Shown here: piece after piece, positions 44,935-61,450 of the stretch
Layout of the letters: every line of letters starts with the position of its first letter
Numbering within the stretch: position 1 is the stretch's first letter
Assembly: GCA_040222015.1 (NCBI GenBank)
Contig: JAVJWO010000040.1
Location: 1-64,000, forward strand
Length of the DNA: 64,000 nt
Origin: Coleofasciculus chthonoplastes F2-STO-03
GTDB lineage: Bacteria > Cyanobacteriota > Cyanobacteriia > Cyanobacteriales > Coleofasciculaceae
Direction of reading: 5' to 3'
The notes under the pieces: model-generated
Databases searched by the model: none
Told to the model about the DNA's origin: nothing
The model's input: only the letters and a program-made list of their open reading frames with translations
Translations under genes and position numbers: made by a program

Positions 44935-45032
44935 GATGACGGCTTAGTTGCCTCCGTTGTCGTAGACTAAGGAAAAAGTAGACTAAGGAAAAAGGCACAG
45001 CACCAGGAATCACTGTACGGGTAAACGGGACA
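44935..45032 (-). pseudogene. ycf51: Degenerate internal fragment of ycf51 (copy of 61197-61278)
   Basis: 26 bp identical (44947-44972 = 61209-61234) plus flanking similarity and a 16-bp internal duplication. Confidence 0.85.
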
Positions 45033-45041
45033 AATTGCTAG

Positions 45042-45875
45042 TTATCCAAATTGCCAAATTGCCAATTCTTTACCTACATTTAACTGTGCATTGTCACCGA
45101 ACGTGAACGTTCTTTCTGGATGCGGTTGATCCTTCATCGTACAAACAACTTGGCGAATTCGATACCTTGGAGCAACATTCTGGGATACTTGTACCGTAAA
45201 ACCATCAGAACGATAGATGGTAATATCTCCGACGCCAGATGAGTGATAGCCAAAAGATCGAAGCAGTAATCCGAGTTCCTCATGTTCCGATACAGTCAAT
45301 TCAAGATGAACCTCTGATATATCTTCAAATAAAGACGTTTCGCAAGTATCCAATGTTTTCAGATACGCCCCACGGTCAAAGCAACCCCCAGGGGTAAGTT
45401 TGATGTTTTTATACTCTAAATAATCCTGATCAAATTCCATTAACCACGCAGCGAAGGCTTCTCTCTCTGATGGGTTGAGTGTCAAGTAATGAAACCAGGG
45501 AACTTTGCCATTTTCGGTTTGACGAACTTGCAAATCACAAAACGTTTCTTTGGCGCCGAAGGCTCTTAGTTGTTCCGCTACACTATCAATTTGTCCGGCT
45601 TGTTGAGTATTGAACCCAATACCCGAAAACCCTTCCTTCAATCCTTCAGCACCTCCTGGAGGAAAAAGTTCAAGATAGGCATAGTTGCCCCTGAGATAAA
45701 TTCCCGACCAACTCTCTGTATCCGTTTCTACGGTATCTCTGGATATTGTGCAGAATGATTGGTTAATGAACTCGGATTGGGCGATTGATTCTAGGGTGTC
45801 TGTGTCGAGCGTCACATATAAATGGTTAAATTCTATTCCCATAGTCTTACTTATTGATCTCAAACCAAGTTGCAT
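45042..45875 (-). CDS. DUF5829-like / VOC-fold hypothetical protein
   Basis: FNHLYVTLD, SWSGIYL.G..AYLELF, VPWF and WLMEF. Confidence 0.6.
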   Translation of the reverse strand: MQLGLRSISKTMGIEFNHLYVTLDTDTLESIAQSEFINQSFCTISRDTVETDTESWSGIYLRGNYAYLELFPPGGAEGLKEGFSGIGFNTQQAGQIDSVAEQLRAFGAKETFCDLQVRQTENGKVPWFHYLTLNPSEREAFAAWLMEFDQDYLEYKNIKLTPGGCFDRGAYLKTLDTCETSLFEDISEVHLELTVSEHEELGLLLRSFGYHSSGVGDITIYRSDGFTVQVSQNVAPRYRIRQVVCTMKDQPHPERTFTFGDNAQLNVGKELAIWQFG

Positions 45876-46167
45876 TCTATTATGTCTAGGAAGAGCGAAG
45901 CCTAGTTACCCATAACCTTTATCTGTAGGGTGCGTTAGCGGAGCGTAACGCACCATCTTAGCGAAGCGTAACGCACCATCAAGACCTCTAAAATTGTGGG
46001 ATAGATTTGACGGTTTGATGGTCGCACGTCGGTGCGCCCCTACAATTCTAATCTACCATTTTAGGTGTGCCGAGCCAGTCGAGTAACCCAACAGGCTAAC
46101 GATGGTGTTGGGTTTCGCTTACGCTCTACCCAACCTACGAGAACTCTGGCAATCTTGTTATGACTGT

Positions 46168-46222
46168 TGACAAATGACAAATGACAAATGACAAATGACA
46201 AATGACAAATGACAAATGACAA
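46168..46222. repeat. Heptamer STRR (tgacaaa)n
   Basis: Seen directly. Confidence 0.9.
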
Positions 46223-46226
46223 AGAA

Positions 46227-49200
46227 TCAACTGTGAGACTTTCCAGGGATTGACCAGCGCTTGATCCGACCAATGGTGACGGGCATATTCAGCGCCACAT
46301 CTAGGGTAAACCGGAAGACTCGCCGCGATCGCCGACCGTTTTCCGGGTCAAAGAAGATTAGTAATACATCCCAGCAATCGCTATTAATCCGGCAGTAGGG
46401 GCTTTTCTTCACCTCAATGGTGTCCAGTTGACGCTCAGAGGCGATCGCTTCGGCAAAGACGGAGGCGGATTGGAAGATGTTGGTGGCGGCGAAGTTGAGG
46501 GCGCGATCGCGTGAGGTTTGTCCCAGGTTACGCAAGTCGTGGTAGACGCGGTTCAGGAAGGCGCTCAAGGCTTCCCGGATTAGGGGTTCTTGGTCGGGGT
46601 CAAATCGGTTACTAATGGCGGCTAGGGCAGCGTTTACTAGGGCGTTGACGGTCCAACCATACATCCCGCGCACGTTATTTACGGTTACAACAGGCACGAC
46701 TTCCCCGGAAAAGAGTTCCACAGTGCGGGTGGTGCGGCGAGCGGGTAGACTGATCCGCTCCACAAAGCCATCGCTGGTGTCTGGCTCTAATTGCCCTGCT
46801 AACATCAGCAGGAAAACTTCGTAAATGTCGTCGGCAAAGGGTCCTTTGGGTTCTAAGACATAGATGGTGTTTTGATCCAGGTTGAGTGTCCAGATTAGGG
46901 AGCGCCGTTCGTCGGGGTAGCGATCTAGGTGTTCCAGCATTTGGCGCGGATCGTAGGGGTCTGGCGGTACCATGATGCCATCAATTTCGGCAGGTGCCAT
47001 TAGTTGCTTGAATGTATCGCGGCGGGCTTCGTCGCCAAAGTCGTAGCCCAGGGTGCCAAGGGCGTAAACGTTACCGGAAAAGGCGGTGCTGGCTTCAACA
47101 GTGGCGGGGTTGGCTAGTGCAGCATCGGAGTCAGCCGCCGCGATAACCGAGGCTTCTGTGGGTGTAGCGGGTTGTACGGCGGGGCTGGCGGGGGTGGGCA
47201 TGGCATAGCCAGGGCGTTGGGTGCGGGTTACTTGGTCGCCAGCAAAGGAAATCGTGACCGAGGGTTGACCAAATAGCACCTTCATCGCGCCAGAGATATT
47301 CACAAAGCCGCGTAAACAGCGATCGGGTTCTTCGACAACATCGGGGTCACAAGGAATGGCGGTGTTGAGGAGTGCCATGCGGACGGCTTCGGCATCGACG
47401 GGTTTGCCTTCTTGCAGTTGCAGACTCATCAGCAGGGCAGAAATCCCGGTCATTACTGGTGCAGCAATACTTGTACCCTTTTGGCGTACAGGTTCATCTG
47501 TGGCGGGTTGTGCACACAGAACATCCTCACCCGGAGTCATGATGCCCTCTTCTGCATAGTTACCACCCCAATTGCTATAGGGTTGGGGCATACCATCTTT
47601 TTTCATCGCTCCCACAGCCAGGGTTCCTGGTAGCACAGCGGGAATACACCAGCATTCGCCTTTATCGTTGCCAGCGGGAGCCACAATCAAGATGTTGTTG
47701 TCTTGACACTTTTTCACAGTTTGGACTAGGAGTTCTTCCCCTTTACCTGTTTGGGTAGGACGACAAGCGGCACAGTGAATAATGTTTGCCCCCAAATCCA
47801 GGGCTAACTCGAAGCTACGGGCAAGATTCAAAGGAGACATCATTTCCGAGCTGCCCATGCTGTTGATTGGTACATTAATCACTCGACAGTTGGGTGCCAA
47901 ACCGGGAGCTGGGGTGTGTTCCTGACCCACAATTACGCTGGTGACATGACAAGCATGGCGATCCATATAAATGCGGTCGGCAAGCGAGTCGGACAGAGCC
48001 GCTTCTAAAGCCGCCAGTTTAGCTTTGCCTTTCAAATCACTGTTATCGATTTCCCGGTATGTTGCGTGGTCTTCTGGAGAAATCGGCTCTGGAGTCTCAT
48101 GCCAATAGGGAAAAACCTTAGAGACTTCAGCACCCTCAAAACACGACAATGTATGGTCGGGGCTACCGTCCAAAATTACGATCGTGATGCGAGGATCACC
48201 CAGAGTTTGGTTGCGTAGGTTTACCAGTCCGGGAATGGAATTATCCAGGTCATGGGGGTGGAGTGCCACCGATATTTGGGTTGCAGAACTCTCAACCTCA
48301 CTTGCTAAGATAGCTGCCAATTCAATTTTATCTTCCCCACTATCTGATTCAATTTTATTCGCAAAAACATCTGAATTTATTGTTTCCACCGATTCTTCTA
48401 AAGCATCTATCTCAAAAGCCTGAGTGACAATTTCCTCAACTTGAATTAATGCCTTGTCAGACGCGCACACAGACTCTGTAGTATCTGTAGGTTGAGTTAA
48501 GGAGCGACACTCAACATCAGCAGGCTCAGGTTCCACTTCATCCTTATCAAATGCCTCTTCATTCACTGAATTTGACACCTCTGATGAGTCTACAGAAATA
48601 TCAAACTTAGTGTATGACTTAACCCTACTTGCGGCAACATCCCAGTTCAGTCTTGATCCCAACATAAACTCACCCACCGCCGACTCTTGCACATAGTCCA
48701 ACCTAGCTGCTCGCCCAAAACCATCACTATCTCCACTTCCCAGAGCACAGGGAGCCAGCCCCATATTCGTCGCGACTAAGTAAAGGTTGTACTGCAACAC
48801 CCCAACGTGTTTGAGTACTAACGCATAGGCAACGGAGCGATACTTGCGGAATAGCCGTCCAAACCGCGCCGTAATCACTAGAAGTACTTGTGGTTTTGGT
48901 TCATAGTAAACATAAGGTTCCAGAGCCAAGACATTCTCCGACTCAGCAATCTGCTCTAGTTGGTGATTCAGTGGGTCGTAATGATATAGCCCTTTGAGCA
49001 AACCTTCGCAATGTCGCACTACCAGATAAATCTCTAGCTCGTACATTGCTCCGGCACTAGGGTAGGGACGGCGTCTCGACTCACCATATTCAAAGTCAAG
49101 CTCCAAACCTGCTTGCCGTTTCCAATCATCACCAAACTTATCTTCAGGTCGGTAAATTTCTTTGACACGCGCCGTACGATAAAGCAGTTCACCTAATTGC

Positions 49201-50069
49201 TCAATCCTAATTGGATGCATTTCATCGTATTCTCGAATCGATTCCCTTGCTTCGATTGCTTCCGTTAGCTTGGCATCGTTGCACATCAACCCCTCTAGGC
49301 TCGGACGTGGCAGTGGTGTAATTTTGTGGCTCATGGGCGGCTTGATCACCGGAAAATCCGACCATTGGTCAATACAACGCTGGATATCCTCTCCTGGGTA
49401 GTCATGGCGACCCAAGCGGCTGCGGCTGTGGAAAAGCAAGTTATGGAAGTCCCAAAGCTGAAGCGAGGGGGATTCAGAGTCAACGCTTAGGAAGCCCGAT
49501 GCCCATAACAGGTCGAGAAACTGATAGGCTGTTTCCGGTCCCAGATAGGGAGGAGGAGTTAATCTGGCTAGAAACTGGGGCTGGGCGAGTTGGGCTATTA
49601 GCGCACTAGCCCGCCAGTCGAGAAGTTTTACCCGAAACGGCGAAAGTGGGGATTCCAGCACCATCGCATTTTCGTAGGAATGCTGGTAGGCAAAGCGCGA
49701 GAGGCTCACACTTGAATGTGTCCAAGCAGGTTCGATCAGGTTAAGCTTGGCAGTTTGTACCATCGGGATCGCTACGGCTAGCGGCAATACCGCATAACAT
49801 AGCCAACCTCGTTCTTCTAGCTGTTGCAACGTCACTGCGAACTGCTCCCCAGCAGCCTTACCTTCTCGTTCTGCTAGGGCTTGCACCAGTGCTTCGGCAG
49901 TGGTACGACCTTCCTGAAGGTGTTTGAGAGCGTTGCTAAGTCCAGGGGTTGTGGCAAGGTTCAGCAAGGCAGTCGAAGTTAGCCCTCTCGCCGCTAGGGT
50001 ATATTGGTCTTCAGACGTTGTGATTTCAATAGCAGGGTTGAGAGAAATGGCAAAGGGGTAGATGATCAT
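46227..50069 (-). CDS. patG: Cyanobactin PatG-family azoline oxidase - macrocyclase - DUF protein
   Basis: SagB/ThcOx oxidase (RRPYPSAGAMYELE, YALVLKHVG), subtilisin triad (ILDG, HACHV, GTSIA) with helical insertion, and C-terminal DUF (GYDFGDEARRD, SPYCR..SDCWD). Confidence 0.95.
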   Translation of the reverse strand: MIIYPFAISLNPAIEITTSEDQYTLAARGLTSTALLNLATTPGLSNALKHLQEGRTTAEALVQALAEREGKAAGEQFAVTLQQLEERGWLCYAVLPLAVAIPMVQTAKLNLIEPAWTHSSVSLSRFAYQHSYENAMVLESPLSPFRVKLLDWRASALIAQLAQPQFLARLTPPPYLGPETAYQFLDLLWASGFLSVDSESPSLQLWDFHNLLFHSRSRLGRHDYPGEDIQRCIDQWSDFPVIKPPMSHKITPLPRPSLEGLMCNDAKLTEAIEARESIREYDEMHPIRIEQLGELLYRTARVKEIYRPEDKFGDDWKRQAGLELDFEYGESRRRPYPSAGAMYELEIYLVVRHCEGLLKGLYHYDPLNHQLEQIAESENVLALEPYVYYEPKPQVLLVITARFGRLFRKYRSVAYALVLKHVGVLQYNLYLVATNMGLAPCALGSGDSDGFGRAARLDYVQESAVGEFMLGSRLNWDVAASRVKSYTKFDISVDSSEVSNSVNEEAFDKDEVEPEPADVECRSLTQPTDTTESVCASDKALIQVEEIVTQAFEIDALEESVETINSDVFANKIESDSGEDKIELAAILASEVESSATQISVALHPHDLDNSIPGLVNLRNQTLGDPRITIVILDGSPDHTLSCFEGAEVSKVFPYWHETPEPISPEDHATYREIDNSDLKGKAKLAALEAALSDSLADRIYMDRHACHVTSVIVGQEHTPAPGLAPNCRVINVPINSMGSSEMMSPLNLARSFELALDLGANIIHCAACRPTQTGKGEELLVQTVKKCQDNNILIVAPAGNDKGECWCIPAVLPGTLAVGAMKKDGMPQPYSNWGGNYAEEGIMTPGEDVLCAQPATDEPVRQKGTSIAAPVMTGISALLMSLQLQEGKPVDAEAVRMALLNTAIPCDPDVVEEPDRCLRGFVNISGAMKVLFGQPSVTISFAGDQVTRTQRPGYAMPTPASPAVQPATPTEASVIAAADSDAALANPATVEASTAFSGNVYALGTLGYDFGDEARRDTFKQLMAPAEIDGIMVPPDPYDPRQMLEHLDRYPDERRSLIWTLNLDQNTIYVLEPKGPFADDIYEVFLLMLAGQLEPDTSDGFVERISLPARRTTRTVELFSGEVVPVVTVNNVRGMYGWTVNALVNAALAAISNRFDPDQEPLIREALSAFLNRVYHDLRNLGQTSRDRALNFAATNIFQSASVFAEAIASERQLDTIEVKKSPYCRINSDCWDVLLIFFDPENGRRSRRVFRFTLDVALNMPVTIGRIKRWSIPGKSHS

Positions 50070-50125
50070 AGTTATGAATTTTGTTAAATCAATTCCTCAT
50101 TTGCATAACATTTCGTTAAATTTTT

Positions 50126-51073
50126 TCACAAAATCTTGATGCTATGCCTTGATTTATCTAGTTGGGTGTAGTAAAATCTAAATTCATTTAAGCAATTGTT
50201 CTCCGTTTCTCGCTCAGTAACACCTACCCAAGTGAATGCATTAGCCTCTTGATTTTTGCAAAAGGAATAGATTCTGTTACCCAAATCGTTAAAGGAAAAA
50301 TAATTAGGAATATATTCGATTTCCTTAAAACCAAAATATAAAACTGGCTCTAAATTTGCCTTAGAGAAGCCCACATTAAGAAGGTCTGAAGCCTCAAAGA
50401 TGGAAACAATTTTTTTTGTAAATTTTTTTCGTATGTAAGGTCTTAAGCATCTTCCCCAATTACCCCGAAGTTCATGTTTGCCTCCCGGAGTAGTAGCATA
50501 TAGCTCTATATAGCTACGACCATCCAAGAAAAAATCAAATCCGATCAGTGTTACACTTTTTAACAGAATTTCTGTCAATTCAGCTGAGTAGTGACCCCCA
50601 TCAAGAGTGAGCGCTGTCCTCACCAGCTCTTCAGGATTTTCCTCTCTATTGATATGAATGTGTATTTTTACACTGGAGTCCTCAAGTTTCGGGTGTAAAT
50701 CGATTCCTACAGTATTGCCAACAATTTTTTTAGACTCAATATGTATGGCTAAGAAACGCTGAAGCAAGTCGCGGTTAATTTCAACACCTATCCGAGTTTC
50801 GATTCGATCTAAAAACTGTAGAGCTTGTACCAAAGATTTTGGCCAGGTATGTACTAGCTCACCACGAGCTGCAAAACGCCCTGCGAATAACCGATTGCCT
50901 TCAACTTTGCAAGAGGCTTCAATACCACAAGGGTATTCTATTTCAAGAACTACTTCCTCAAAAATCTTGATAGGAAATGTTGGTTCTACATCAAAAACAT
51001 TTTGATGGGTACGCATAAACTGGAGACGACGCTCTCGCAGCTGATGATATTGTAGTATGGAAGTTATGGTCAC
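50126..51073 (-). CDS. Cyanobactin ABBA prenyltransferase, TruF1/LynF-like (apparently catalytically intact)
   Basis: IEASCK, FAGRF, VGIDL, SVKIH, IELY, PVLYF and FRFYY motifs. Confidence 0.9.
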   Translation of the reverse strand: MTITSILQYHQLRERRLQFMRTHQNVFDVEPTFPIKIFEEVVLEIEYPCGIEASCKVEGNRLFAGRFAARGELVHTWPKSLVQALQFLDRIETRIGVEINRDLLQRFLAIHIESKKIVGNTVGIDLHPKLEDSSVKIHIHINREENPEELVRTALTLDGGHYSAELTEILLKSVTLIGFDFFLDGRSYIELYATTPGGKHELRGNWGRCLRPYIRKKFTKKIVSIFEASDLLNVGFSKANLEPVLYFGFKEIEYIPNYFSFNDLGNRIYSFCKNQEANAFTWVGVTERETENNCLNEFRFYYTQLDKSRHSIKIL

Positions 51074-51182
51074 AATTTCATTTCCTCACGAGAAATATAT
51101 TCACATTAATTTGATGAAGTATAAAAAACCGTGGTTAGGTTGTTACGGCTGATTCCTGCTTGAAATTCTTTTGAAATATAAA

Positions 51183-52142
51183 CTATCCCACATAATGTTG
51201 ACATTGATCGCGTTTATTATATGAAAAACTGAAATTTTCCAATCTATAACTGTTTAACTCTCGCTCCTTGAAAGTTAAGGCAGCGTAATTCACACAATCC
51301 TGACTTATAACAAAATCGTAAATTCTATTTCCCAAGCTGTTGAACAAAACATATTTTTTCAGGTCTCTAATATTTCTAACATGGACAGATAAACTTGGTT
51401 CCACTTTTGTCCTAGGAAAATGAATGATCAAAAATAAGGAAGCTTCAAATAGGGATATGACTTTTTTAGAAAAGTGTTTCTGAATATAAGGCGTCAAATA
51501 TATTCCTCGATTTCTGGGGAAATCTTTCCCTTGACCTCCTGGAGAGCCAGACCAAAGTTCCACATCGCTGCGACCATTCAAAAAAAGATTGAATCCAATC
51601 AAAACCGTATCTTTAAGCAGTACCTGTAATAATTCAGGCGAGTAGCTACCACCATCAAGTGTGAGGGCTGTCCTTACTAACTCTTCCGGATCTTCTGCCA
51701 ATTCAAGATGCATATATATTTTAATGCAAGAATTCTCAATTTTTGGTCGCAAGTCAATTCCTATTGTGTTATTTGTAATTTTGTGAGAGCCAATATGAAC
51801 TTCTACAAACTGCTGTAGCAAATCACGATTAAGTTTAATGCCCACTCTACTTTCAACTTTATTCAATAATTTTACAGCATCGTTTAAGGAACTAGGCCAG
51901 GTATGCTCTTCATGAGAAACCTGATAATCTGTAGCAAAAAGCTGATCGCCTTCAACATGGCAAGTCGGTTCAACACCACAAGCGCCTTCCATACTTTGAA
52001 CGGCTTCTTCAAAGAGAGAGAGAATAAAGATTGGTTCTAAATCGAAAGCATCTTGATGGATACGCATAAACTGGAGACGATGCTCTCGCAAATTGTTTTG
52101 TTTAAATATACGAGTTAGATTCATAAGATATTCTTGTTTCAA
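51183..52142 (-). CDS. Cyanobactin PatF/TruF2-like prenyltransferase homolog (motifs degenerate)
   Basis: Same family (RLQFMR.HQ.AFD, NNTIGIDL, FNSLGNRIY), but FATDY, VELW and FSFSY replace the R/Y motifs. Confidence 0.88.
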   Translation of the reverse strand: MKQEYLMNLTRIFKQNNLREHRLQFMRIHQDAFDLEPIFILSLFEEAVQSMEGACGVEPTCHVEGDQLFATDYQVSHEEHTWPSSLNDAVKLLNKVESRVGIKLNRDLLQQFVEVHIGSHKITNNTIGIDLRPKIENSCIKIYMHLELAEDPEELVRTALTLDGGSYSPELLQVLLKDTVLIGFNLFLNGRSDVELWSGSPGGQGKDFPRNRGIYLTPYIQKHFSKKVISLFEASLFLIIHFPRTKVEPSLSVHVRNIRDLKKYVLFNSLGNRIYDFVISQDCVNYAALTFKERELNSYRLENFSFSYNKRDQCQHYVG

Positions 52143-52585
52143 AGAGTAAGTTGAATTTACGCGATCTAGTGGGAACTATTTTATTGAGTTACAGTTTATA
52201 GTCACAGAAAATTCTCGCTAAAGGCATGAGATACATTTTTAACCTAAAGAAGGCGAGGTAGATGAGATAACTGCATAGTTTTATGTATGTTTTAGTTTAC
52301 CTCAAGCCTCGCCTTTAGAGTAAAGCCTAGATAAAACTTCAGTGTTCAGACAGTTAACCACTGTGCAACCGAGACAAATAGACTTCACCTACAGCAAATA
52401 TACTGCACGAAGGCATCAACTGAGTTTTTTCACCAGCTTGCTTTTTTACGTTTTATTTTCCAGCACTCTGTTTGAGTTTTTTCCGTCTAGAAATTAAGGA
52501 AAACGCCAAAGCGCACCTCACGCAGTATAAGTATATTAGAGTGCAGATGCTTCTACACCTAATCGTCAGATGCTTCTACACCTAA

Positions 52586-52801
52586 TCAATCATCATAGGA
52601 GCAGGCACAAGTAGGAGCACACATGGATGCACCTACGCCATCATCATAGGAGCAGGCACAAGTAGGAGCACAAATAGATGCACCTACACCACTACCACCT
52701 AGAGCTTCCTCACAGAGTTCAGCCAAGTGGCTGGGGAGTTTACCATTGGTGCTGCGGATCACGGGTTTGCCTTGTTGGGGCAGAATGTTTTTCTTGTCCA
52801 T
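52586..52801 (-). CDS. patE: Cyanobactin precursor peptide (71 aa), cores ICAPTCAC and MCAPTCAC
   Basis: MDKKNILPQQGKPV leader, LAELCEEAL RSI, GVGAS RSII, SYDD RSIII; GAGGA RBS before ATG 52801. Confidence 0.97.
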   Translation of the reverse strand: MDKKNILPQQGKPVIRSTNGKLPSHLAELCEEALGGSGVGASICAPTCACSYDDGVGASMCAPTCACSYDD

Positions 52802-52929
52802 TGGACTAATCCTCATATTGTTGTTTACTTTGTTAACCCGTTGGGGTGGGTTAGTCCCCTTCCACCTTGCGGCGAAGCTTGTTAGTTGGCACCTGGTTTG
52901 AAGAGAATTATGAGTTGCCAATCAAATTC

Positions 52930-53352
52930 TTAAATATCTGGTGGATGCCAATTTTCAGCCACCCAAATTTGGCGTGATCCGATCGCATAGTCGTTGTTGA
53001 CTTTTAGAGCAGAGACAGTGGCTCGACCAACTGCGGTCAATCCCTTAATTTGTGTACCTTCCTCTATCCAGGCAAAATGTTCAGCCCAAACCTGTTTCCG
53101 GGGATGAAACAGGGTGACAAGTTTTCCTGTTTGGGGGTCAATCCCTTGAGTCTTGGCTCCTTTAAACAGATTGCAGCGATAGCATGAAGCCGCCAGATTA
53201 GCGCGATCGCTACTTCCGCCTAGAGCGCGAGGAATAATGTGGTCAATCACAAGTGGCATTCCGATTAAACATTGTTGGGTTTGACAATATTCGCAACATT
53301 CCTGGGCTTGCGAAATCACCTGTTGACGAATCCCTGGAGAGACAAAGGACAT
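52930..53352 (-). CDS. HNH endonuclease
   Basis: CEYC, IDHIIP, NLAASCYRCN and LFHPR. Confidence 0.9.
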   Translation of the reverse strand: MSFVSPGIRQQVISQAQECCEYCQTQQCLIGMPLVIDHIIPRALGGSSDRANLAASCYRCNLFKGAKTQGIDPQTGKLVTLFHPRKQVWAEHFAWIEEGTQIKGLTAVGRATVSALKVNNDYAIGSRQIWVAENWHPPDI

Positions 53353-53355
53353 GGG

Positions 53356-53769
53356 TTAGTTGCCAGAGAGTTGGCTCAAATCGCGGATGGGCTGCCCTCG
53401 CCACCGTAAGATGGCACAGGCATGAGCTTTTTTGAGCATGAATCGATCCGCAGCTTGGGAGAGTTCCTGCAATTCTTGATGCTCGGCTTCTGAGAGTAAG
53501 CCCTCCTGATTGCGTTCTAGCAGGGTGATATGGCGTTCCTGTTGCTCCACAGGAATCTGGCTTTGGGCAATTTGCCGCAGAGCTTCAACGCTCAGAGTTG
53601 GCAGGGTTAACAGTTCACTCCGAGCTTCAACCGGAGCCGTTTCAATCGCCGGGGGTAAATTGCCGGTGATACTTTGAATCACCAGATAGGACAACGGTTG
53701 GTTGGTCAGTTCTGCCAGTCGAGATAGGCGTTCAAAGGCAGATTCAGGCAGGTCGATGGTAAGTTGCAT
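53356..53769 (-). CDS. Partner (antitoxin-like) protein of the HNH gene
   Basis: MQLTIDLPE N-terminus and LKKAHACAILRWRG C-terminus; translationally adjacent to the HNH gene. Confidence 0.7.
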   Translation of the reverse strand: MQLTIDLPESAFERLSRLAELTNQPLSYLVIQSITGNLPPAIETAPVEARSELLTLPTLSVEALRQIAQSQIPVEQQERHITLLERNQEGLLSEAEHQELQELSQAADRFMLKKAHACAILRWRGQPIRDLSQLSGN

Positions 53770-53839
53770 GATGATGTTGATTTATGTCAAAGACAACTTA
53801 TTAGACAACTTGTAAAATTTCTGGAGTTGGCAGAGGCTT

Positions 53840-54274
53840 TCCTGTTTGCCTGTAGCCATTGGCTTTGGCAATAGTGGATGTATCCAAGATGTATCCAATA
53901 GGAATCTTACTTTTGGTCGGGATCTGGAAAACCTCTCTCCAAACCTCTCTCCTGCAAGGAGAGAGGCTTTGAATTCTCCCCCTTCCGTGGAACAAAAGCG
54001 AAGCATCCTCTGTCCTCCCCCCGTGCAAAAAAAGCGAAGCATCCTCTGTCCTCCCCCCTCTTGTAGGGGGGAATGAGGGGGGTTGGGGGGAATGAGGGGG
54101 GTTGGGGGGAATGAGGGGGGTTGGGAAGGGGGCTGGGGGGAAAGGGTTTGATATCGATTTTTCTAGATGGCGTGAAAAGTCAGAATAGGAATGGCTACCT
54201 TTACCACGTTTTGGTAAGAGTGTAAACCCAGCTTGTTGAAACATTTGCTTTAGCTCCCTGATTGTCTTAGGCAT
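53840..54274 (-). pseudogene. hicA: hicA-family toxin gene interrupted by a MITE
   Basis: MPKTIRELKQMFQQAGF...GKGSHSY | insertion | SYWIH..PLLPKP; an extra 11-bp duplication (ttggatacatc) frameshifts the 3' part. Confidence 0.8.
53906..54183. mobile_element. 278-bp MITE with perfect 9-bp TSD
   Basis: Ends cttactttt / aaaagtcag; aataggaat at 53897-53905 and 54184-54192. Confidence 0.88.
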
Positions 54275-54289
54275 TTCACAAACTAGCTC

Positions 54290-56620
54290 TTAAAATGGCA
54301 TCGGTGTCGGGTTCATCTGCGCCTCAGTGAGCGGTTCATCCCGCCACCCCAGCTTCACTGGCACATCATAGAGCCGCCCTGCCCCAAACCGTGACCAAAA
54401 ATGGCGCATCTCTGGCACAATCACCTTAACCACATTTAAACCAATGTCTGGTCGGGTTTGATCCAGCACCAAGGTTTCTAGCCCCGCTTGCTGGGCAATC
54501 TCCACACAGGCGAGTACCTCGGCGTAAATATCATCTCCCCAAAGCTTGGGGTAATCCTGGGCAGTCTTCAGGGGTTGCTTGGCATCAGGAACCAGATAGG
54601 GATGATCCGCCAACTTCGCATTCAGTAACCAATCCGCTGCATCGCTTTTCAGGTTCTCATCTGGCACCTTGTCCAGTTCCAAACCCAGTTGATTCACCTC
54701 TGTCAGGGCGCGAAGGATGGCAATCGTGGGGTCAAGGTGCGCTCCAAAGCCGAGAATCAGCCGTTCCGAGGTTCCAGTCTGCCGATTCGACACGCCGACA
54801 AACGCGGGAATGCCTAAATCTGCCGTCAAATCCAGCACCCACAACTCTCGGTCATGGTCCCGGTAGTACCGCTGCAACGCCTGGAAATACGGCTCATCAA
54901 AGCTGCTCAAATCCACCGCTGGACGGCTCAGGCGGTTGTACCACCACAGCGCCACACTGTCGCGCTCCACCAGTTCCAGAAACCCTTGCAGGATTGCCTC
55001 TTCCAAGGTGTTCCCCGCCGCATTACCGTTGGAGTCACCTCGGCAGAAGCGGTGTGCTGGGGGCAAGGGGTAATGGTAGTAGCACATTGCCGTGGGTAAA
55101 TACTTATGCGTCTGCTGCGTGAGGGACCACATTGGCGTCCAATCAATCGCCTGACTCGGAGCAAACCGTTGAGGAATCCAATCATGAGCCACCGTTGCCT
55201 GCTCATTCAGGGTGTCCCGATTGGCATATTGCGCTTCACTAAAGCACAAACACCGCTGCGGATGAATCGCCAAGTCTTCCAGTTCCGCCAAGGTAGCCCG
55301 TCTCCGGGGTTCATCCCCCTGAAAGATACCGGAATAGCGCTCCACCGCCTCACACAACCCACTCGCCCGGGATTGGCTATCGGTTTTGCCTTTACCGGAA
55401 CTCTTGTGTTTCAAGGTATTCCGTAGCCCCCGCAGGGAGGTGGAACTACCAAAACTATGCCCCGCTTTGTAGGTATGCACCAAGGGATTCGCGGGGTCAG
55501 AAATCCGCACCAGTTCCGTTACCACCCCCGTCACTGGACTAATGAGATGCTGATATTTCTGCACCGTCTGTTCTGGGGTAGTAGCACGATGACCGCCATC
55601 CTGGGTGAACTGCTTGGGACGCGACTCCAGGTTCAGCCGCTCAAACCCCCGCCGTTGCAAGAGTTGCGGGTTACCACAGGTGGGACATTGAGGACGCCGG
55701 ATCAGGGCATGGGTTTTCAAATCCGGGAGCATCTGGTTGAACGTGATAATCTTGCCCTCTAGGGTGGGGAAAAACACTGTTCCCGATGTCGTGGTATTGA
55801 TATAGTGCTTAACCACCCACTTAGCAATCTCCGTCGCCGCCAACTGTAACCCGGTTTGCTGAGTTGAGGGCAGCGTCGCCCGTGCTGTGGGAAAGCAACC
55901 CAGCATCCCCTGCCCATTCTCACCATTGCGCTGCTGCTGTTCCTGTTTTTGCCGCAACACCGACGACTCCACTTCCCGGTTCCCCCGGAGGGGATGGGCA
56001 AGACAGTGCCAACACCCCGTCTTCCCCGGCACAAATACCGGACCCAGCCACAGCACACTACCCACCGGCTTCACCAGTAACCAAGGTTGCTGACGCTCTA
56101 AAGCTTGCTGGTTAATCGTCGCCAGTTCCGGTTGCAAATAGTCATCGGTTAAGACAACATTCAGCGCCGTTGGCGAATCCGCGTCGGGAGGTGCCACGGA
56201 AATGCCCACGTCCCCCAGAGCAGCTTTCAGGGCTGCCACCGTCACCTCACTAATCCCCTGACCCACCGTTGTCAGCGTCACCGACTGCTGTAGCCCCTGG
56301 GCTGCCACGGGGGGGGCAATCCCTAACTCACTCCAGAATGCCGCCACGTCTGAAGATAGCTCTGGCGCCGCTTCGGTGAGATACCCCTTCTCTGCCAAGC
56401 GATTTAGCACATAGTCGATGTAGTCTGGGGGGACTTCCCCATCCAGCTTTTCGACAATCTGCTCTAGGGTGTATTGCCCATTTAACAGGGGCAGAATCTG
56501 GCAGTAGAGTTGTCCGGTGAGGGCGTGGTTGCCCTGTTCACCCAGGAGATACACCTGCTTCGGCTCGATGATCTCCACATGGAAGTGGGGCTTAATTTGG
56601 GGCAGTGTCGTGGATTCCAT
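54290..56620 (-). CDS. patD: Cyanobactin YcaO heterocyclase (PatD/TruD/LynD family)
   Basis: RRE/E1-like N-terminus, SGKGKT, EAVERYS, SNGNAAG, ELVERD and C-terminal PTPMPF. Confidence 0.97.
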   Translation of the reverse strand: MESTTLPQIKPHFHVEIIEPKQVYLLGEQGNHALTGQLYCQILPLLNGQYTLEQIVEKLDGEVPPDYIDYVLNRLAEKGYLTEAAPELSSDVAAFWSELGIAPPVAAQGLQQSVTLTTVGQGISEVTVAALKAALGDVGISVAPPDADSPTALNVVLTDDYLQPELATINQQALERQQPWLLVKPVGSVLWLGPVFVPGKTGCWHCLAHPLRGNREVESSVLRQKQEQQQRNGENGQGMLGCFPTARATLPSTQQTGLQLAATEIAKWVVKHYINTTTSGTVFFPTLEGKIITFNQMLPDLKTHALIRRPQCPTCGNPQLLQRRGFERLNLESRPKQFTQDGGHRATTPEQTVQKYQHLISPVTGVVTELVRISDPANPLVHTYKAGHSFGSSTSLRGLRNTLKHKSSGKGKTDSQSRASGLCEAVERYSGIFQGDEPRRRATLAELEDLAIHPQRCLCFSEAQYANRDTLNEQATVAHDWIPQRFAPSQAIDWTPMWSLTQQTHKYLPTAMCYYHYPLPPAHRFCRGDSNGNAAGNTLEEAILQGFLELVERDSVALWWYNRLSRPAVDLSSFDEPYFQALQRYYRDHDRELWVLDLTADLGIPAFVGVSNRQTGTSERLILGFGAHLDPTIAILRALTEVNQLGLELDKVPDENLKSDAADWLLNAKLADHPYLVPDAKQPLKTAQDYPKLWGDDIYAEVLACVEIAQQAGLETLVLDQTRPDIGLNVVKVIVPEMRHFWSRFGAGRLYDVPVKLGWRDEPLTEAQMNPTPMPF

Positions 56621-56685
56621 AGCGCGAACAGTCGGTGATTAAGTGTGAGTGCAAGAAGGCAGAAGGCAGAAGGCAGAAGGTGGGG

Positions 56686-56927
56686 CGGACTTTTCACAGT
56701 ATGTAGCCCAATGTGAGTGTGAATTGTGTAGGGGCGGGTTTCACCACTCTCTTTTCGGTTGCAACTAGATGTAACTAAACCCGCCCCGACTCAGGTTTTG
56801 AGTCTCTATCTGTAGGGTGTGTTAGCGTAACGCACCATTGCCACTAAACCCGCCCCGACGCGCCATGGCGCGTCTCTACAGATGCCGCGTCTCTACAATA
56901 GTTTTTAGGCGTCCCGTGAAAAGTCAA
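56686..56927. mobile_element. MITE (gacttttcac...gtgaaaagtc TIRs) with stacked REP-like cargo
   Basis: TIRs plus internal similarity to 32085-32241. Confidence 0.7.
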
Positions 56928-56932
56928 GACGA

Positions 56933-57808
56933 TTAAGCCCAGATACGCCCCCGACGGAAAGACTTGGATTTGCTCCCAGATTTTTTTGCCTCCTCCCGGG
57001 CGTAGTCCCACCAATAGGAGTAGTCTTGTAGCCCAGTCATCGACGTCGGCACGTAGGACTTTGGGGGTTCAGGCGTAGGCGTCTCGTTAGCTGGAGGGGC
57101 GTCTGACGCCTTATCTTCAGAGTTTTGGCTGCTCGATTTCTTGCTCATGTTAATCTCCTTATAATAAATAGGGGTCTGGCTACCACAAATAATTTGCTCA
57201 AGAACTGCCGCAAAATTTGTTGGCGCATCCACAGCGGCGAAAAACTGTCCCTGGGTTTCAGCCGCAACTCTGGCATATTCTGGCTGAATAGTGTCACGGT
57301 GCTTGCTTTTGGACATACCCAAATAGGTATGAACTCGAACGTGAGAAGCTTGGGCGCTTTGAATTGCTAAATTCGCCGCCTCAATATCCGCTGCCTCAGT
57401 TTTGCCACCACCGCCTTCCAGGGCTTCATCACCCAGATAAAATAGGGAACGATAAGCTTGCTCTCGCCAATCGAAATGGTTTGAGACATCTTCAATAGCA
57501 CGAGCAGCATCTTCTTGAGCACCCGCTGAGGGAAGTTCACCTCGCTTGCGCCCCCGCAGTTTAGCCTCAGCCACTCCACAGTCTTTTGTGAGGTAAGTTC
57601 GCAGCGTGCGCTTAAATGCCGTCCCGCGCCATCGCCCCTCAATCCCCAGCCAAACCACCCGCAAATCCGCCGGACAGTTCGCCTCGGCTGCGGTAATCGC
57701 GGCTGCCACCGCATCACTGACGGCATTGGCAACATCTTTCATCGAAGGACTTGTATCCATCAGGATCACCAAATCAACGAGTGGTATTGTGCTAGCAGAA
57801 TTACTCAT
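56933..57808 (-). CDS. patC: vWA-domain protein fused in frame to PatC-family peptide
   Basis: MIDAS DTSPS and LGDE motifs in the N-part; C-terminal TGLQDYSYWW...FRRGRIWA. The PatC part (56933-57148) has its own AAGGAG RBS. Confidence 0.85.
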   Translation of the reverse strand: MSNSASTIPLVDLVILMDTSPSMKDVANAVSDAVAAAITAAEANCPADLRVVWLGIEGRWRGTAFKRTLRTYLTKDCGVAEAKLRGRKRGELPSAGAQEDAARAIEDVSNHFDWREQAYRSLFYLGDEALEGGGGKTEAADIEAANLAIQSAQASHVRVHTYLGMSKSKHRDTIQPEYARVAAETQGQFFAAVDAPTNFAAVLEQIICGSQTPIYYKEINMSKKSSSQNSEDKASDAPPANETPTPEPPKSYVPTSMTGLQDYSYWWDYAREEAKKSGSKSKSFRRGRIWA

Positions 57809-57851
57809 AGGGATACTGACGTCACCTTTACTTCTCAAACCATTGACCGAA

Positions 57852-58088
57852 TTAAAAGAAGCTTCCCATGCCGCCAAAGCCACCCCAACCCTGGCTAGCA
57901 CTTGAGTGCATCACTTGGTTAAAACTGCGGTTGGCATAGGCGGACGGATCGTTATAGTTAGCGCCATGGAGCAAATCCATGCGAATATGCACCAAATCTT
58001 CGAGCCGACCATTTTCCACATCCACGCATAGTGCTGGCTGGACGAAATGGGGTCGTTTGACCGGGGGAGACAATACAGGTAGTCGCAT
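57852..58088 (-). CDS. patB: Cyanobactin PatB-family protein
   Basis: MRLP.LSPPVKRPHF...LLHGANYNDP. Confidence 0.92.
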   Translation of the reverse strand: MRLPVLSPPVKRPHFVQPALCVDVENGRLEDLVHIRMDLLHGANYNDPSAYANRSFNQVMHSSASQGWGGFGGMGSFF

Positions 58089-58214
58089 TGTTGAAAATCC
58101 TCCACAATTAACGTATAGAGTGAACAGGGGTGTCGGGTTAGGTGTTCATTGTCGGGACACAGCACTACCGTGCCTGTACAACTATCCCAACCCTGACCCC
58201 AATTTGGCTGTCCC

Positions 58215-60212
58215 TTAGTAAGGGGAAGACCAGGAACGGACTTCGCCCAAGGTAACCGGAACCAGGTCACTCACATCAATCGTAAATCGGAAAATCTTCT
58301 TGGCACGACGATTATTTTCCGGGTCGAAGAATTTCAGCTTCACATCCCAACAGTCGCTATCCATACGACAGAAGGGACTTTTCTCCACGGTGATGCTATC
58401 GAGTTCCATCCCCACCGCAACCGCTTGGCTGAAGGTTTGCGCCGCTTGGAAGGCGTTGGTAACCGCGAAGTTAAGGGCGCGGTCTTGAGACGTAGTACCC
58501 AAGTTGCGGAGGTCGTAGTAGATGCGGTTGAGGAATCCATCCAACGTCTGACGGATACGACCTTCATCCGCTGTTGTTTCCTCAGTTTGTACGGCTTCCA
58601 TCGCCGCACTCACCAAGTTGTTCACCTTCCAGCCGTAGATGCCCCGGGTTCCCAGGGGTTCAATCACGGGGATAACTTGACCGGAGAAGAGCTTAACCGT
58701 GCGCTTGGTTAAAATACCCGGAATACTGACGCGCTCCACGTATTCAGCATCATTTTCGGCTTGGATTTGACCCGCCAAAAGTTCCTGCAGGGCGCGGTAG
58801 GCATCGACGGCAAAGGGACCCGTGGGCGCGATCGCATAAACTGGAGTCAGTTCAACATTGAGCGTCCAAATCAGCGATCGCGATTCCGACATATTATCTC
58901 CCAGATAGTCCACCATCTGGCGGGCATCATAGGGGTTTGCCGGCACCATCGTCCCCTGAAAGTCAAAGGGCGGCATCAGTTGCTTAAACGAGTCCCGACG
59001 GGCTTCTGAGCCGAAATCATAACCCAGAGTTCCCAAAACATAGACAATTTCACCGAGAGAGGGGATCTCGCTGGGGGCTTCGCTGGCGGTAACGGAATGA
59101 GCAGTAAGATTGGGCATAGTGGGCATAGCAGGGGGTTGGGGTACAGAATTCATCAGGTTTTGCAGGTTGGGACTGTTCGTGGGCATTGCCCCTGGGGGTG
59201 AAGACGGGGCGGACTCAGCGCTTGGCGCTTCTGTCCCACTGGTCAACCCCCCCACACACCCGCAACCTGCGCCTTCCACGCCTGCTTCATCAACGGTGGC
59301 TGCATCAACGGCTGATGCAAGTTCCTCTGACATAGTTCCTCCTGTTAGTAACGTTACAGCTCCAGATATGTTGAGTTTGCCCGCCAGACACCGCTGGGCA
59401 TCAGCGGGCAGGTCAAAGTCACAGGGCAATGCACTCTGCAACAACACTTGACGCACTCTTTGGGGGTCAGGGATTTCCCCCCGTTCCCGTTGCAGACTCA
59501 GCAGCAGCGCCGCCACCCCCGACACAATCGGCGTGGCAAAGCTCGTACCACTCAGCGTCTGAGTTCCCCCACCGGGTTTTGCCCCCAAGACATCCTTGCC
59601 GAGGGCAAGAATGCCTTGAGTCTTATAGGTGTCACCCCAGTTACTAAAGTCCAAGGGCTTGCCGTTGGCATCCATGGCGCCAACAGCCAGGGCAGCGGGC
59701 AGGGCAGCCGGGACATGGAGACATTCGCAGCCATTGTTACCCGCCGCCGCAATCAGCAAAACATTCTGCTGCTCACATAAGCGCACCGCATTCTCCAGCC
59801 AGCCGTCGGCTTCCCCAAAATCCGTGAGTTGACCGCCACTGATGTTGATAACGTGCGCTCCGGCGTTCACTGCCCGCTCAATGCCCCGCGCCAAGTCTAA
59901 CTGGGATACACGGCGGCGATTATCGGAAAAGATGGGAACAATCACCCCTTGGCATTGCGGTGCAATCCCCGTCACCGGACTCCCCGGTTGACCCAAAATA
60001 ATGCTGGAAACATGGGTGCCGTGAACCGACATATTACCATCCGGACGAGCCTCCTCATTCACCAGAGACGGCAAGCGCGTCAGGGTTTTGCCGACAAAGC
60101 AAGGATGGGTTTGGTCAACCGGTCCATCCAACACGGCAATGCAAATATCCTTGTCACCCTGGGTCATCGCCATCAACTCCGGCAATGCAGGTATCGCCAA
60201 AACAGCAGACAT
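58215..60212 (-). CDS. patA: Cyanobactin PatA-family N-terminal protease
   Basis: VLDGP, HGTHV and SGTSFA triad; C-terminal DUF (GYDFGSEARRD, SPFCR.DSDCWD). Confidence 0.96.
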   Translation of the reverse strand: MSAVLAIPALPELMAMTQGDKDICIAVLDGPVDQTHPCFVGKTLTRLPSLVNEEARPDGNMSVHGTHVSSIILGQPGSPVTGIAPQCQGVIVPIFSDNRRRVSQLDLARGIERAVNAGAHVINISGGQLTDFGEADGWLENAVRLCEQQNVLLIAAAGNNGCECLHVPAALPAALAVGAMDANGKPLDFSNWGDTYKTQGILALGKDVLGAKPGGGTQTLSGTSFATPIVSGVAALLLSLQRERGEIPDPQRVRQVLLQSALPCDFDLPADAQRCLAGKLNISGAVTLLTGGTMSEELASAVDAATVDEAGVEGAGCGCVGGLTSGTEAPSAESAPSSPPGAMPTNSPNLQNLMNSVPQPPAMPTMPNLTAHSVTASEAPSEIPSLGEIVYVLGTLGYDFGSEARRDSFKQLMPPFDFQGTMVPANPYDARQMVDYLGDNMSESRSLIWTLNVELTPVYAIAPTGPFAVDAYRALQELLAGQIQAENDAEYVERVSIPGILTKRTVKLFSGQVIPVIEPLGTRGIYGWKVNNLVSAAMEAVQTEETTADEGRIRQTLDGFLNRIYYDLRNLGTTSQDRALNFAVTNAFQAAQTFSQAVAVGMELDSITVEKSPFCRMDSDCWDVKLKFFDPENNRRAKKIFRFTIDVSDLVPVTLGEVRSWSSPY

Positions 60213-60692
60213 AAATTAGTTCGTCCTGTCGCCCTAAAAATAGCTAAACTACTCGAATTAATTGGATATAAAGTGACCCTGCTATGGGTATTACAAGATA
60301 TACCTATAGCTCCGGTTTTGACCGATTAATACCAATATAGATATGGGTATTACTGTCTGATCGAAAATTCATTTTCAAATCTCTTTTTGTTTATAGCATA
60401 CTGATTTTTTTTTTTACAAGTGATTTTGTATTTTTTTAAAAGTCTATTTGATTTGTACCAATAATTTAGACAAAGCCATAGTAATAAGTGTGGGATGCAC
60501 AAATTGCCAGGTTTAATGCCTGTTTTATTGTTTATTCTTTTGAGCTAGAAACACTGTTTAGGGGTTTGGTGACCAAGCCCCTACGGTGGCTTGCTCGCCT
60601 CTTGAACGATGGGTTCAGATCGCGTTGGCGAAGCCTGTTCCTTCAGAACGTATGGCACTCAAACCCAAAAAAGACCAACTTGCCAGGTAAGA

Positions 60693-60801
60693 TATAGCAA
60701 TCGCCATAGCGGTTAGGACGCATCATTTAGTTGTTCCAGACGCGCCATGGCGCGTCTGGAACAACAGTTCGTTTGTCCTAATCGATGTGTCTACTGCTAT
60801 A
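60693..60801. mobile_element. MITE-like element (tatagca...tgctata, inner ttaggac/gtcctaa) with palindromic cargo
   Basis: Nested inverted repeats seen directly. Confidence 0.6.
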
Positions 60802-60932
60802 CTTGTTCTCCTTGTTAGTGATATTCACGAATTGTTTCACAAGTCGGTTCACTTGACAAATACAACCGTCCATTTTTGTAATAAAACATTACAATCTCTG
60901 GAACAGACTGTTTCAATACTTCCCCTGAAAAG

Positions 60933-61450
60933 TCACGTGGAGGTGTCTGGTAATTGAGCCAAGCGTTCTTTGTAAATATTGATCGTCATCTGTTCATCAT
61001 CACGCTTAGCCAGCGAGCGGCTGATTTTACCTACAACTAGGGGTTTAGATACACCGGGTTCTGGGTGGATCACAGTGCGGGCGCGAATAGTCAGTTGGTT
61101 ATTTTCTCCACCCAAACGCCCATAAGAAAAGAAGTCGCTGGCGGCTTGGCGCAGACTGGCTTCCAGTTGAGATTCGTTGATCTTTGTGGGTAAAGCGATA
61201 ACAGCTTGGTTGCCTCCGTTGTCGTAGACTAAGGTAAAGTGGACTGCACCAGGAATTACTGTATGGCTAAATGGGACGATACTCAGGGCAAATAAGCCGC
61301 CCGTCAGCACCCCCATAAAGCCCGTAATTCCCACCAGCCGAAATCGGATGCCCCATTTAAAGATAAAACCTAAGAGGCTAAGAACTCCGCAAACTAGGGT
61401 GAGAATGCCTATCCATTGGGTATAGGAGAGAAAGTCGGTCGTTGTTGGCA
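60933..61450 (-). CDS. ycf51: Ycf51 (DUF2518) family membrane protein
   Basis: WGIRFRLVGITGF, VYDNGG and RARTVIHPEPGVS. Confidence 0.9.

Follow-up and report, generated by a model that had tools for sequence, protein, structure and literature searches.

Related cyanobactin pathways

The closest described relatives of the cyanobactin cluster of Coleofasciculus chthonoplastes F2-STO-03 are the lyn, tru, pat/ten and tol pathways. The cluster occupies positions 46,227 to 60,212 of the window, the whole stretch of 64,000 nucleotides that was analysed (contig JAVJWO010000040.1, positions 1 to 64,000). The lyn pathway of Lyngbya aestuarii PCC 8106, which yields aestuaramide, combines a Cys-only heterocyclase (D), an oxidase in G and an active F, giving thiazoles and a prenyl group (PMC4663559, section 5.5). 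The window cluster is similar in these features, and both have a multi-core precursor with Pro and Met. In contrast, the acceptor in lyn is Tyr, which the window cores lack. Fb, the prenyltransferase candidate of the window, lies outside the LynF clade and is not a LynF orthologue, and the window has an additional F that appears to be dead.

In the tru pathway (trunkamide/patellin), Thr is left free for O-prenylation (PMC4663559, section 5.2). The window resembles tru in its Cys-only D, two adjacent F genes and predicted free Thr, whereas TruG lacks the oxidase found in the window G, and neither Fb (42% identical to TruF1) nor Fa (45% to TruF2) is an orthologue of its tru counterpart. The pat and ten clusters (patellamide, ulicyclamide, tenuecyclamide) share the A-B-C-D-E-F-G order, the oxidase in G and a dead F, but their D cyclises Ser/Thr and they have no active prenyltransferase, which sets the window cluster apart from pat. 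In the tol pathway (tolypamide), TolF O-prenylates Thr of a thiazoline macrocycle (PMC10496146), as is predicted here, whereas Fb is 52% identical to the Tolypothrix F and sits on a separate branch. The cluster works like lyn with a tru-type acceptor and is a member of neither. It had been described in an earlier note, made from the DNA letters, as a pat/tru hybrid; its Cys-only D, oxidase and active-looking F are largely the known aestuaramide layout, as given in the excerpt of PMC4663559.

Among known compounds, tawicyclamides A and B are octapeptides that contain Pro, two thiazoles and a thiazoline, mayotamides A and B are Met/Ile tri-heterocycle heptapeptides, and mollamide C, a macrocycle combining a thiazole with prenyl-Ser, is the thiazole version of keenamide A, itself a prenyl-Ser peptide (excerpt of PMC7345825). 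These scaffolds are related, but their residues and formulas are unlike those of the predicted products.

The window is read as an intact island in which one precursor gives two head-to-tail cyclic octapeptides, each with three Cys-derived rings and likely a prenyl group on its lone Thr. This full reading is considered reasonably probable. Very probably, the cluster is real and complete and the prediction is good as far as the macrocycle.

Cluster genes and precursor peptide

The list of open reading frames (ORFs) and family scans place A, B, C, D, E, F, F and G on the minus strand without internal stops, which bears out the complete set proposed earlier. The A and G proteases score above the TIGR03895 cut-off and have their triad motifs, and B and C were recognised through TIGR04220 and TIGR04447, with C fused to a von Willebrand factor A (vWA) domain. 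The pathway genes are as follows.

58215-60212, minus strand: A, N-terminal subtilisin-like protease with a C-terminal domain of unknown function (DUF); TIGR03895, 926 bits
57852-58088, minus strand: B, PatB family, 78 amino acids; TIGR04220
56933-57808, minus strand: C, vWA-PatC fusion, 291 amino acids
54290-56620, minus strand: D, YcaO heterocyclase, TIGR03604; LynD/TruD (Cys-selective) group
52586-52801, minus strand: E, precursor, 71 amino acids; TIGR03678
51183-52124, minus strand: Fa (first F), TIGR04445, 322 bits; putative pseudo-prenyltransferase, TenF/BisF1 clade
50126-51073, minus strand: Fb (second F), TIGR04445, 366 bits; catalytic set kept, separate branch
46227-50069, minus strand: G, TIGR03605 oxidase and TIGR03895; macrocyclase and DUF

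E carries a leader, the recognition sequences termed RSI, RSII and RSIII, and a core, as is required of a cyanobactin precursor. Its layout is leader-GVGAS-ICAPTCAC-SYDD-GVGAS-MCAPTCAC-SYDD, and both cores reported earlier between GVGAS and SYDD are present in the 71-residue peptide.

52700-52726, minus strand: RSI, LAELCEEAL
52652-52675, minus strand: core 1, ICAPTCAC, with GVGAS at 52676-52690 and SYDD at 52640-52651
52601-52624, minus strand: core 2, MCAPTCAC, with GVGAS at 52625-52639 and SYDD at 52589-52600

Thr is the sole hydroxyl on the predicted ring, and neither core contains Tyr. No second precursor of the E family was found in the same genome. Two leftover GGTGTAGAAGCATCT copies, coding for GVEAS, lie just past the precursor stop (52545-52582, minus strand) as empty or lost cassettes.

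The recomputed mass of the Ile core is 702.2076 as the tri-thiazole and 770.2702 when prenylated; the corresponding values of the Met core are 720.1641 and 788.2267, and all-thiazoline forms add 6.047. The four masses and the thiazoline shift calculated by hand in the earlier note agree with these to their stated precision.

MCAPTCAC occurs again, in two to three copies each, in three other deposited precursors, and a 5.2-kb contig of about 95% identity covers E-Fa-Fb-G in a hypersaline metagenome. Therefore, the chemotype is not a one-off. The claim that the cores match no known cyanobactin proved right for the literature searched, where ICAPTCAC and MCAPTCAC had no relevant match; supplements could still list them. 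The predicted N8O6S3 and N8O6S4 formulas are absent from Table 1 of PMC7345825, which covers compounds to 2017, and a search on Coleofasciculus and cyanobactins found no relevant compound. The monchicamides were considered as a match and rejected, as their cores in the excerpt of PMC11774001 differ. A degenerate DNA scan for the core, covering 3 of the 64 parts of the collection, gave 119 loci, none with RSIII after the core, and these were dismissed as chance matches.

Other uncharacterised cores were seen at L021:12662-12904 (FVPTIC and IICIC), L100:10154-10486 (QCMPCVCVPVC), L097:10121-10510 (TAPCYC and IISNCLPICYC) and L099:7316-7639 (FITIC), where L numbers denote comparison loci.

Heterocyclase D and its predicted selectivity

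LynD is the best solved-structure match of D, and the two are 84.6% identical. Over its catalytic half, D shares 87% identity with LynD, 83% with TrfD (which falls in the same 90% cluster as TruD) and 77-78% with PatD/TenD. In a comparison of 60 rows, comprising the window D, 7 from other loci and a hand-picked set of 52 matches, D fell in the LynD/TruD clade (Shimodaira-Hasegawa-like approximate likelihood ratio 93). It has the Cys-only state in 13 of 16 diagnostic columns and the PatD/TenD state in one, and its tail is PTPMPF. In the control L020, whose cores end in Ser, 2 columns were Cys-only versus 14. TruD and LynD are Cys-specific, whereas PatD, MicD and TenD are not (excerpt of PMC4282754). 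These findings suggest that D is a Cys-only heterocyclase of the LynD/TruD group, so that a free Thr is a sound prediction, and the LynD-like enzyme proposed earlier thus stands. Grouping with PatD, the outcome named beforehand as speaking against it, was not obtained.

Cyclisation of Thr by D to a methyloxazoline would instead give a patellamide-like tetra-heterocycle with no prenyl site. According to the same excerpt of PMC4282754, TruD and LynD do process Ser/Thr, if slowly, and Thr-cyclising pathways are accompanied by an F of the TenF type, to which Fa belongs. The clade and the 13 columns against one make this outcome very unlikely.

The D of a congener, L017:10737-13926 (core SSTVCIC), shares its N-terminal half with the window D (89%), but its catalytic half is of the PatD type (79%). 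Its selectivity seems to have been swapped by recombination.

The two F proteins and predicted prenylation of Thr

Fa keeps Asp125 and Lys136, a pair absent from PatF in the excerpt of PMC3668578, and has lost the catalytic set, with the Lys56, Arg66, His138, Asp180, Tyr192, Tyr246, Arg299 and Tyr301 positions replaced. It groups with TenF, BisF1 and a Microcystis F (support 100/97) and is 62% identical to TenF. Fa is read as probably dead; an active Fa was rejected despite Asp125/Lys136, since the eight other conserved positions are lost.

Fb keeps all 12 core positions (E52, K56, R66, D125, K136, H138, D180, E190, Y192, Y246, R299 and Y301), like LynF, TruF1 and the Planktothrix F. These include Asp125, Lys136 and Arg66 of PMC3668578 and positions common to the LynF, TruF1 and PagF types, as expected of an active prenyltransferase. 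In a 95%-identical relative, 14 substitutions were counted, with none at the 19 pocket positions scored. Because the catalytic residues are kept and Thr is the sole ring hydroxyl, prenylation of Thr by Fb is likely; orthology is not the basis. Two related loci, a comparison that makes no statistical test, speak for it too. Both have a Cys-only D; in L007, whose core VCPCIC lacks a hydroxyl, the two Fs are dead, and in L018, with the core TIPTVC, one F is an orthologue of TruF1 (71%).

The tree of 33 rows was picked from a 116-row tree that had dropped 20 PagF-like rows. Fb stands alone on a branch; TruF1, the Tolypothrix F and the dead Fs share its clade of 24 rows (support 96/93), from which the LynF and PagF types are absent. 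The nearest relatives beyond 95% copies are 55-57% identical. The Tolypothrix F is probably TolF, as it is 49% identical to TruF1 and has Met231 at the gate compared with the published Met232 (PMC10496146). The F pair had earlier been called TruF1-like and PatF-like. Fb is outside the TruF1 clade and Fa groups with TenF/BisF1, so the phylogeny that had been called for placed D as predicted and did not support a TruF1-like/PatF-like pair. The predicted prenylation of Thr keeps the support of the catalytic set and the lone Thr, but loses TruF1 orthology as its basis.

The PagF pocket is formed by F69, H138, W271 and Y292 (excerpt of PMC12371840). Fb keeps the His and Trp, has Arg and Thr at the F69 and Y292 positions, and lacks the Leu and Phe pocket residues of LynF and PagF. 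Its pocket is therefore neither Tyr-type nor TruF1-type.

Several points weigh against the proposed prenylated products. Fb has no orthologue among tested Thr enzymes (42% to TruF1, 52% to LynF and 52% to the Tolypothrix F). It carries His for the usual Arg at site 127, which is said not to bind substrate directly (excerpt of PMC3668578), Asn at the donor gate (233) and Arg (R70) at the PagF F69 position, and it keeps a Trp (282) found in Tyr enzymes. Approximately unbiased (AU) tests against Fb joining the TruF1, Tolypothrix F and LynF groups were borderline (p 0.057, 0.042 and 0.041), the first of these leaving some room for close kinship with the TruF1 group. Prenylated forms were sought for two other cyanobactin clusters, dol and aph, but not detected (excerpt of PMC12639078). 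In E, RSI has Cys in place of Ser, unlike three relatives.

The separate branch, the odd residues H127, N233 and R70, and the dol and aph results speak for an alternative in which Fb rejects the core or is weakly active, leaving the same cyclic tri-thiazol(in)e octapeptides unprenylated. This is possible, if rather doubtful. The dead Fs of the family show many losses at the catalytic sites, but Fb shows none, and its full set is unchanged in the 95%-identical relative. Prenylation of Thr by Fb remains the preferred prediction.

L018:7216-19769, from a free-living Coleofasciculus, is of the true tru type, with a Cys-only D, a dead second F, an oxidase-deleted G and four copies of TIPTVC. It is a likely patellin-like producer. 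Because a true TruF1 orthologue with an oxidase-deleted G sits in this congener, the window F pair is distinct from TruF1/TruF2.

Protease A, macrocyclase and oxidase

The Asp/His/Ser motifs are kept in A (residues 27-33, 64-70 and 222-228) and in G. G aligns with PatGmac over the triad and the capping helices, with both Lys present; the capping-helix lysines hold RSIII. Both cores end in Cys, and a core-terminal Cys, once cyclodehydrated, suits G. The oxidase part aligns with ThcOx and keeps the KY motif at residues 409-410. Thus, both activities assigned to G in the earlier note are intact by alignment. A kinase-type G was rejected, as the family scan found no kinase domain. Complete oxidation to thiazoles is not guaranteed, because tawicyclamides and lissoclinamides carry mixed rings.

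Linear, end-capped products, as in aeruginosamide or muscoride, would be a further outcome of a cluster with two F genes, since the muscoride pathway has two. They are most improbable here. G keeps the macrocyclisation insert, both Fs are single-domain proteins of about 315 residues with no methyltransferase, and their closest solved structures are PatF and OcyF. Membership of the linear (age/vir) class was rejected for want of a methyltransferase-prenyltransferase fusion.

In three different clusters, the catalytic part of the oxidase (about residues 204-490/512) is deleted in frame in G (L007:15576-18761, L097:11735-14851 and L018:16710-19769).

Proposed pathway

Genes, motifs, clades and island boundaries are observed, and from them we infer every chemical step. 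In each core, D would form thiazolines from all three Cys and leave Thr free. A would cut after GVGAS, and G would cut before SYDD and close the ring. The G oxidase would then turn some or all thiazolines into thiazoles, after which Fb would add dimethylallyl to the Thr hydroxyl. Fa would be a catalytically dead accessory of the PatF/TenF kind. The products are expected to differ in oxidation state and to include unprenylated forms and Met sulfoxides.

Contigs from RNA runs cover E, Fa and parts of G, one run deeply over E. These are not evidence of transcription; contigs cannot show it or rank genes, and two RNA runs mirror a DNA run.

Extent and state of the island

The cluster belongs to a larger island, with further features as follows.

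44936-60909: whole accessory island, about 16 kb, between a glycerol-dehydrogenase-like gene and a DUF2518 gene
52930-54274, minus strand: non-pathway insert between D and E, three ORFs
54152-54274, minus strand: HicA-like stub in the insert (weak match)
53356-53769, minus strand: 137-residue ORF in the insert
52930-53352, minus strand: HNH nuclease in the insert
45042-45842, minus strand: DUF5829 gene, 3' of G, double glyoxalase (vicinal oxygen chelate, VOC) fold

The island limits, the D-E ORFs, the DUF5829 gene and the vWA fusion of C had been overlooked earlier. The flanking genes are joined directly, without the island, in all eight Coleofasciculus congeners searched, and the same empty junction occurs in contigs of four hypersaline or marine runs. 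The island is accessory. The closest named relatives of D are Coleofasciculus proteins (93-98% identity).

Such an accessory island could be silent or decaying cargo with little or no product. Its site is empty in the eight congeners, vWA, oxidase or G genes are broken in sister clusters, the HicA stub and HNH gene interrupt the cluster, and promoter-like sites are not enriched (22 vs 16.9 in shuffles, standard deviation 4.1). However, no pathway frame is broken, other samples contain near-identical E, Fa, Fb and G, and the 137-residue/HNH inserts sit in other clusters too. Silent cargo is accordingly thought unlikely, and a working pathway to the cyclic octapeptides is preferred.

The left island edge (44935-45031) starts with sequence that duplicates part of the DUF2518 gene (61197-61277, 74% identity), the gene that flanks the right edge, and is a possible insertion scar. 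The 137-residue ORF and HNH nuclease pair, whole or cut, adjoins D or E in L016, L017, L018, L085 and L099.

The vWA-PatC fusion and DUF5829

C consists of two parts in one frame.

57149-57808, minus strand: vWA part, DTSPS motif, first 220 residues, in frame with PatC
56933-57148, minus strand: PatC part, with its own AAGGAG and an ATG at 57148; C motif at 56933-57037 (TIGR04447)

The vWA Pfam match is below cut-off; DTSPS fits the DxSxS motif. The model (mean predicted local distance difference test, pLDDT, 81) has a Rossmann-type fold, closest to that of integrin beta I and further vWA domains (E about 5e-6). With a separate ribosome site and ATG for PatC within the frame, the gene may yield both a long (291 residues) and a short (71 residues) form. 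Nodosilinea, Phormidium and two further genomes carry this fusion as well, and in two congeners the vWA part is broken or lost and PatC retained.

The PatC family was detected in 70 of 401 genomes searched across the order, and 30 of 80 matches above cut-off lie in open frames of at least 200 residues (hand count). Fifty motif-bearing ORFs were examined (two were fragments or false), of which 29 were distinct long fusions in three unrelated groups: 12 like carbohydrate-binding modules (CBM; weak Pfam match), 11 like laminin G (LamG; three checked) and 6 vWA. Because long frames and relatives of the vWA form were favoured in this sample, the shares are not frequencies. L092 (4612-13109) holds A, B, three LamG-PatC genes and G, and D, F and E were not found there with the queries used.

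Across L082-L094, the PatC motif terminates LamG-like, CBM-like and vWA proteins, and at some of these loci A, B and G accompany several C fusions, while those queries detected none of D, E and F. The vWA domain also occurs without PatC, fused to DUF6923/DUF4394 repeats in L013:9983-11797 and L014:9992-11914, and just downstream of another cluster in L114:2599-3225.

DUF5829 was found in 13 of the 401 genomes, compared with 70 for PatC, so most clusters lack it. Ten of the 13 genes lie within 1.5 kb of G or G remnants, one about 2.3 kb away, one at a contig end and one on a contig other than that of G; as the genomes are related, the pattern shows linkage and is no test. The DUF5829 gene is thus part of the island and a recurrent neighbour of G. 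Its model (pLDDT 96) is a paired VOC/glyoxalase fold matching 3p8a, 4-hydroxyphenylpyruvate dioxygenase and extradiol dioxygenases, and N6, H7, E58 and E136 are conserved in the alignment. That it serves self-protection or tailoring is conjecture. A literature search linking DUF5829 or glyoxalases to cyanobactins found nothing relevant.

Meaning of the cluster

The novelty lies in two cores, not in the literature searched, within a known family; the Fb branch, PatC fusion and DUF5829 add slightly beyond routine. The cluster gives two exact target masses for a common mat-building genus with no cyanobactin lead in the literature searched. Thr/Ser prenyltransferases are sought as peptide-lipidation tools, and TruF1 is hard to work with (PMC9231227). 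Given this demand, the separate Fb branch is of interest. The roles of PatC, PatB and the DUF domains are described as unknown in the excerpt of PMC4259220, and the PatC fusions and DUF5829 linkage provide testable handles on them.

A speculative extension, held to be improbable as a whole, is that Fb represents a third lineage of Ser/Thr-type prenyltransferases, distinct in regiochemistry, and yields prenyl-Thr tri-thiazole macrocycles. PatC would be a portable C-terminal tag that joins interchangeable vWA, lectin or carbohydrate-binding domains to an A-B-G core, and DUF5829 would act in self-protection or tailoring. If true, the reading of PatC and DUF5829 would expose an overlooked accessory layer of cyanobactin clusters.

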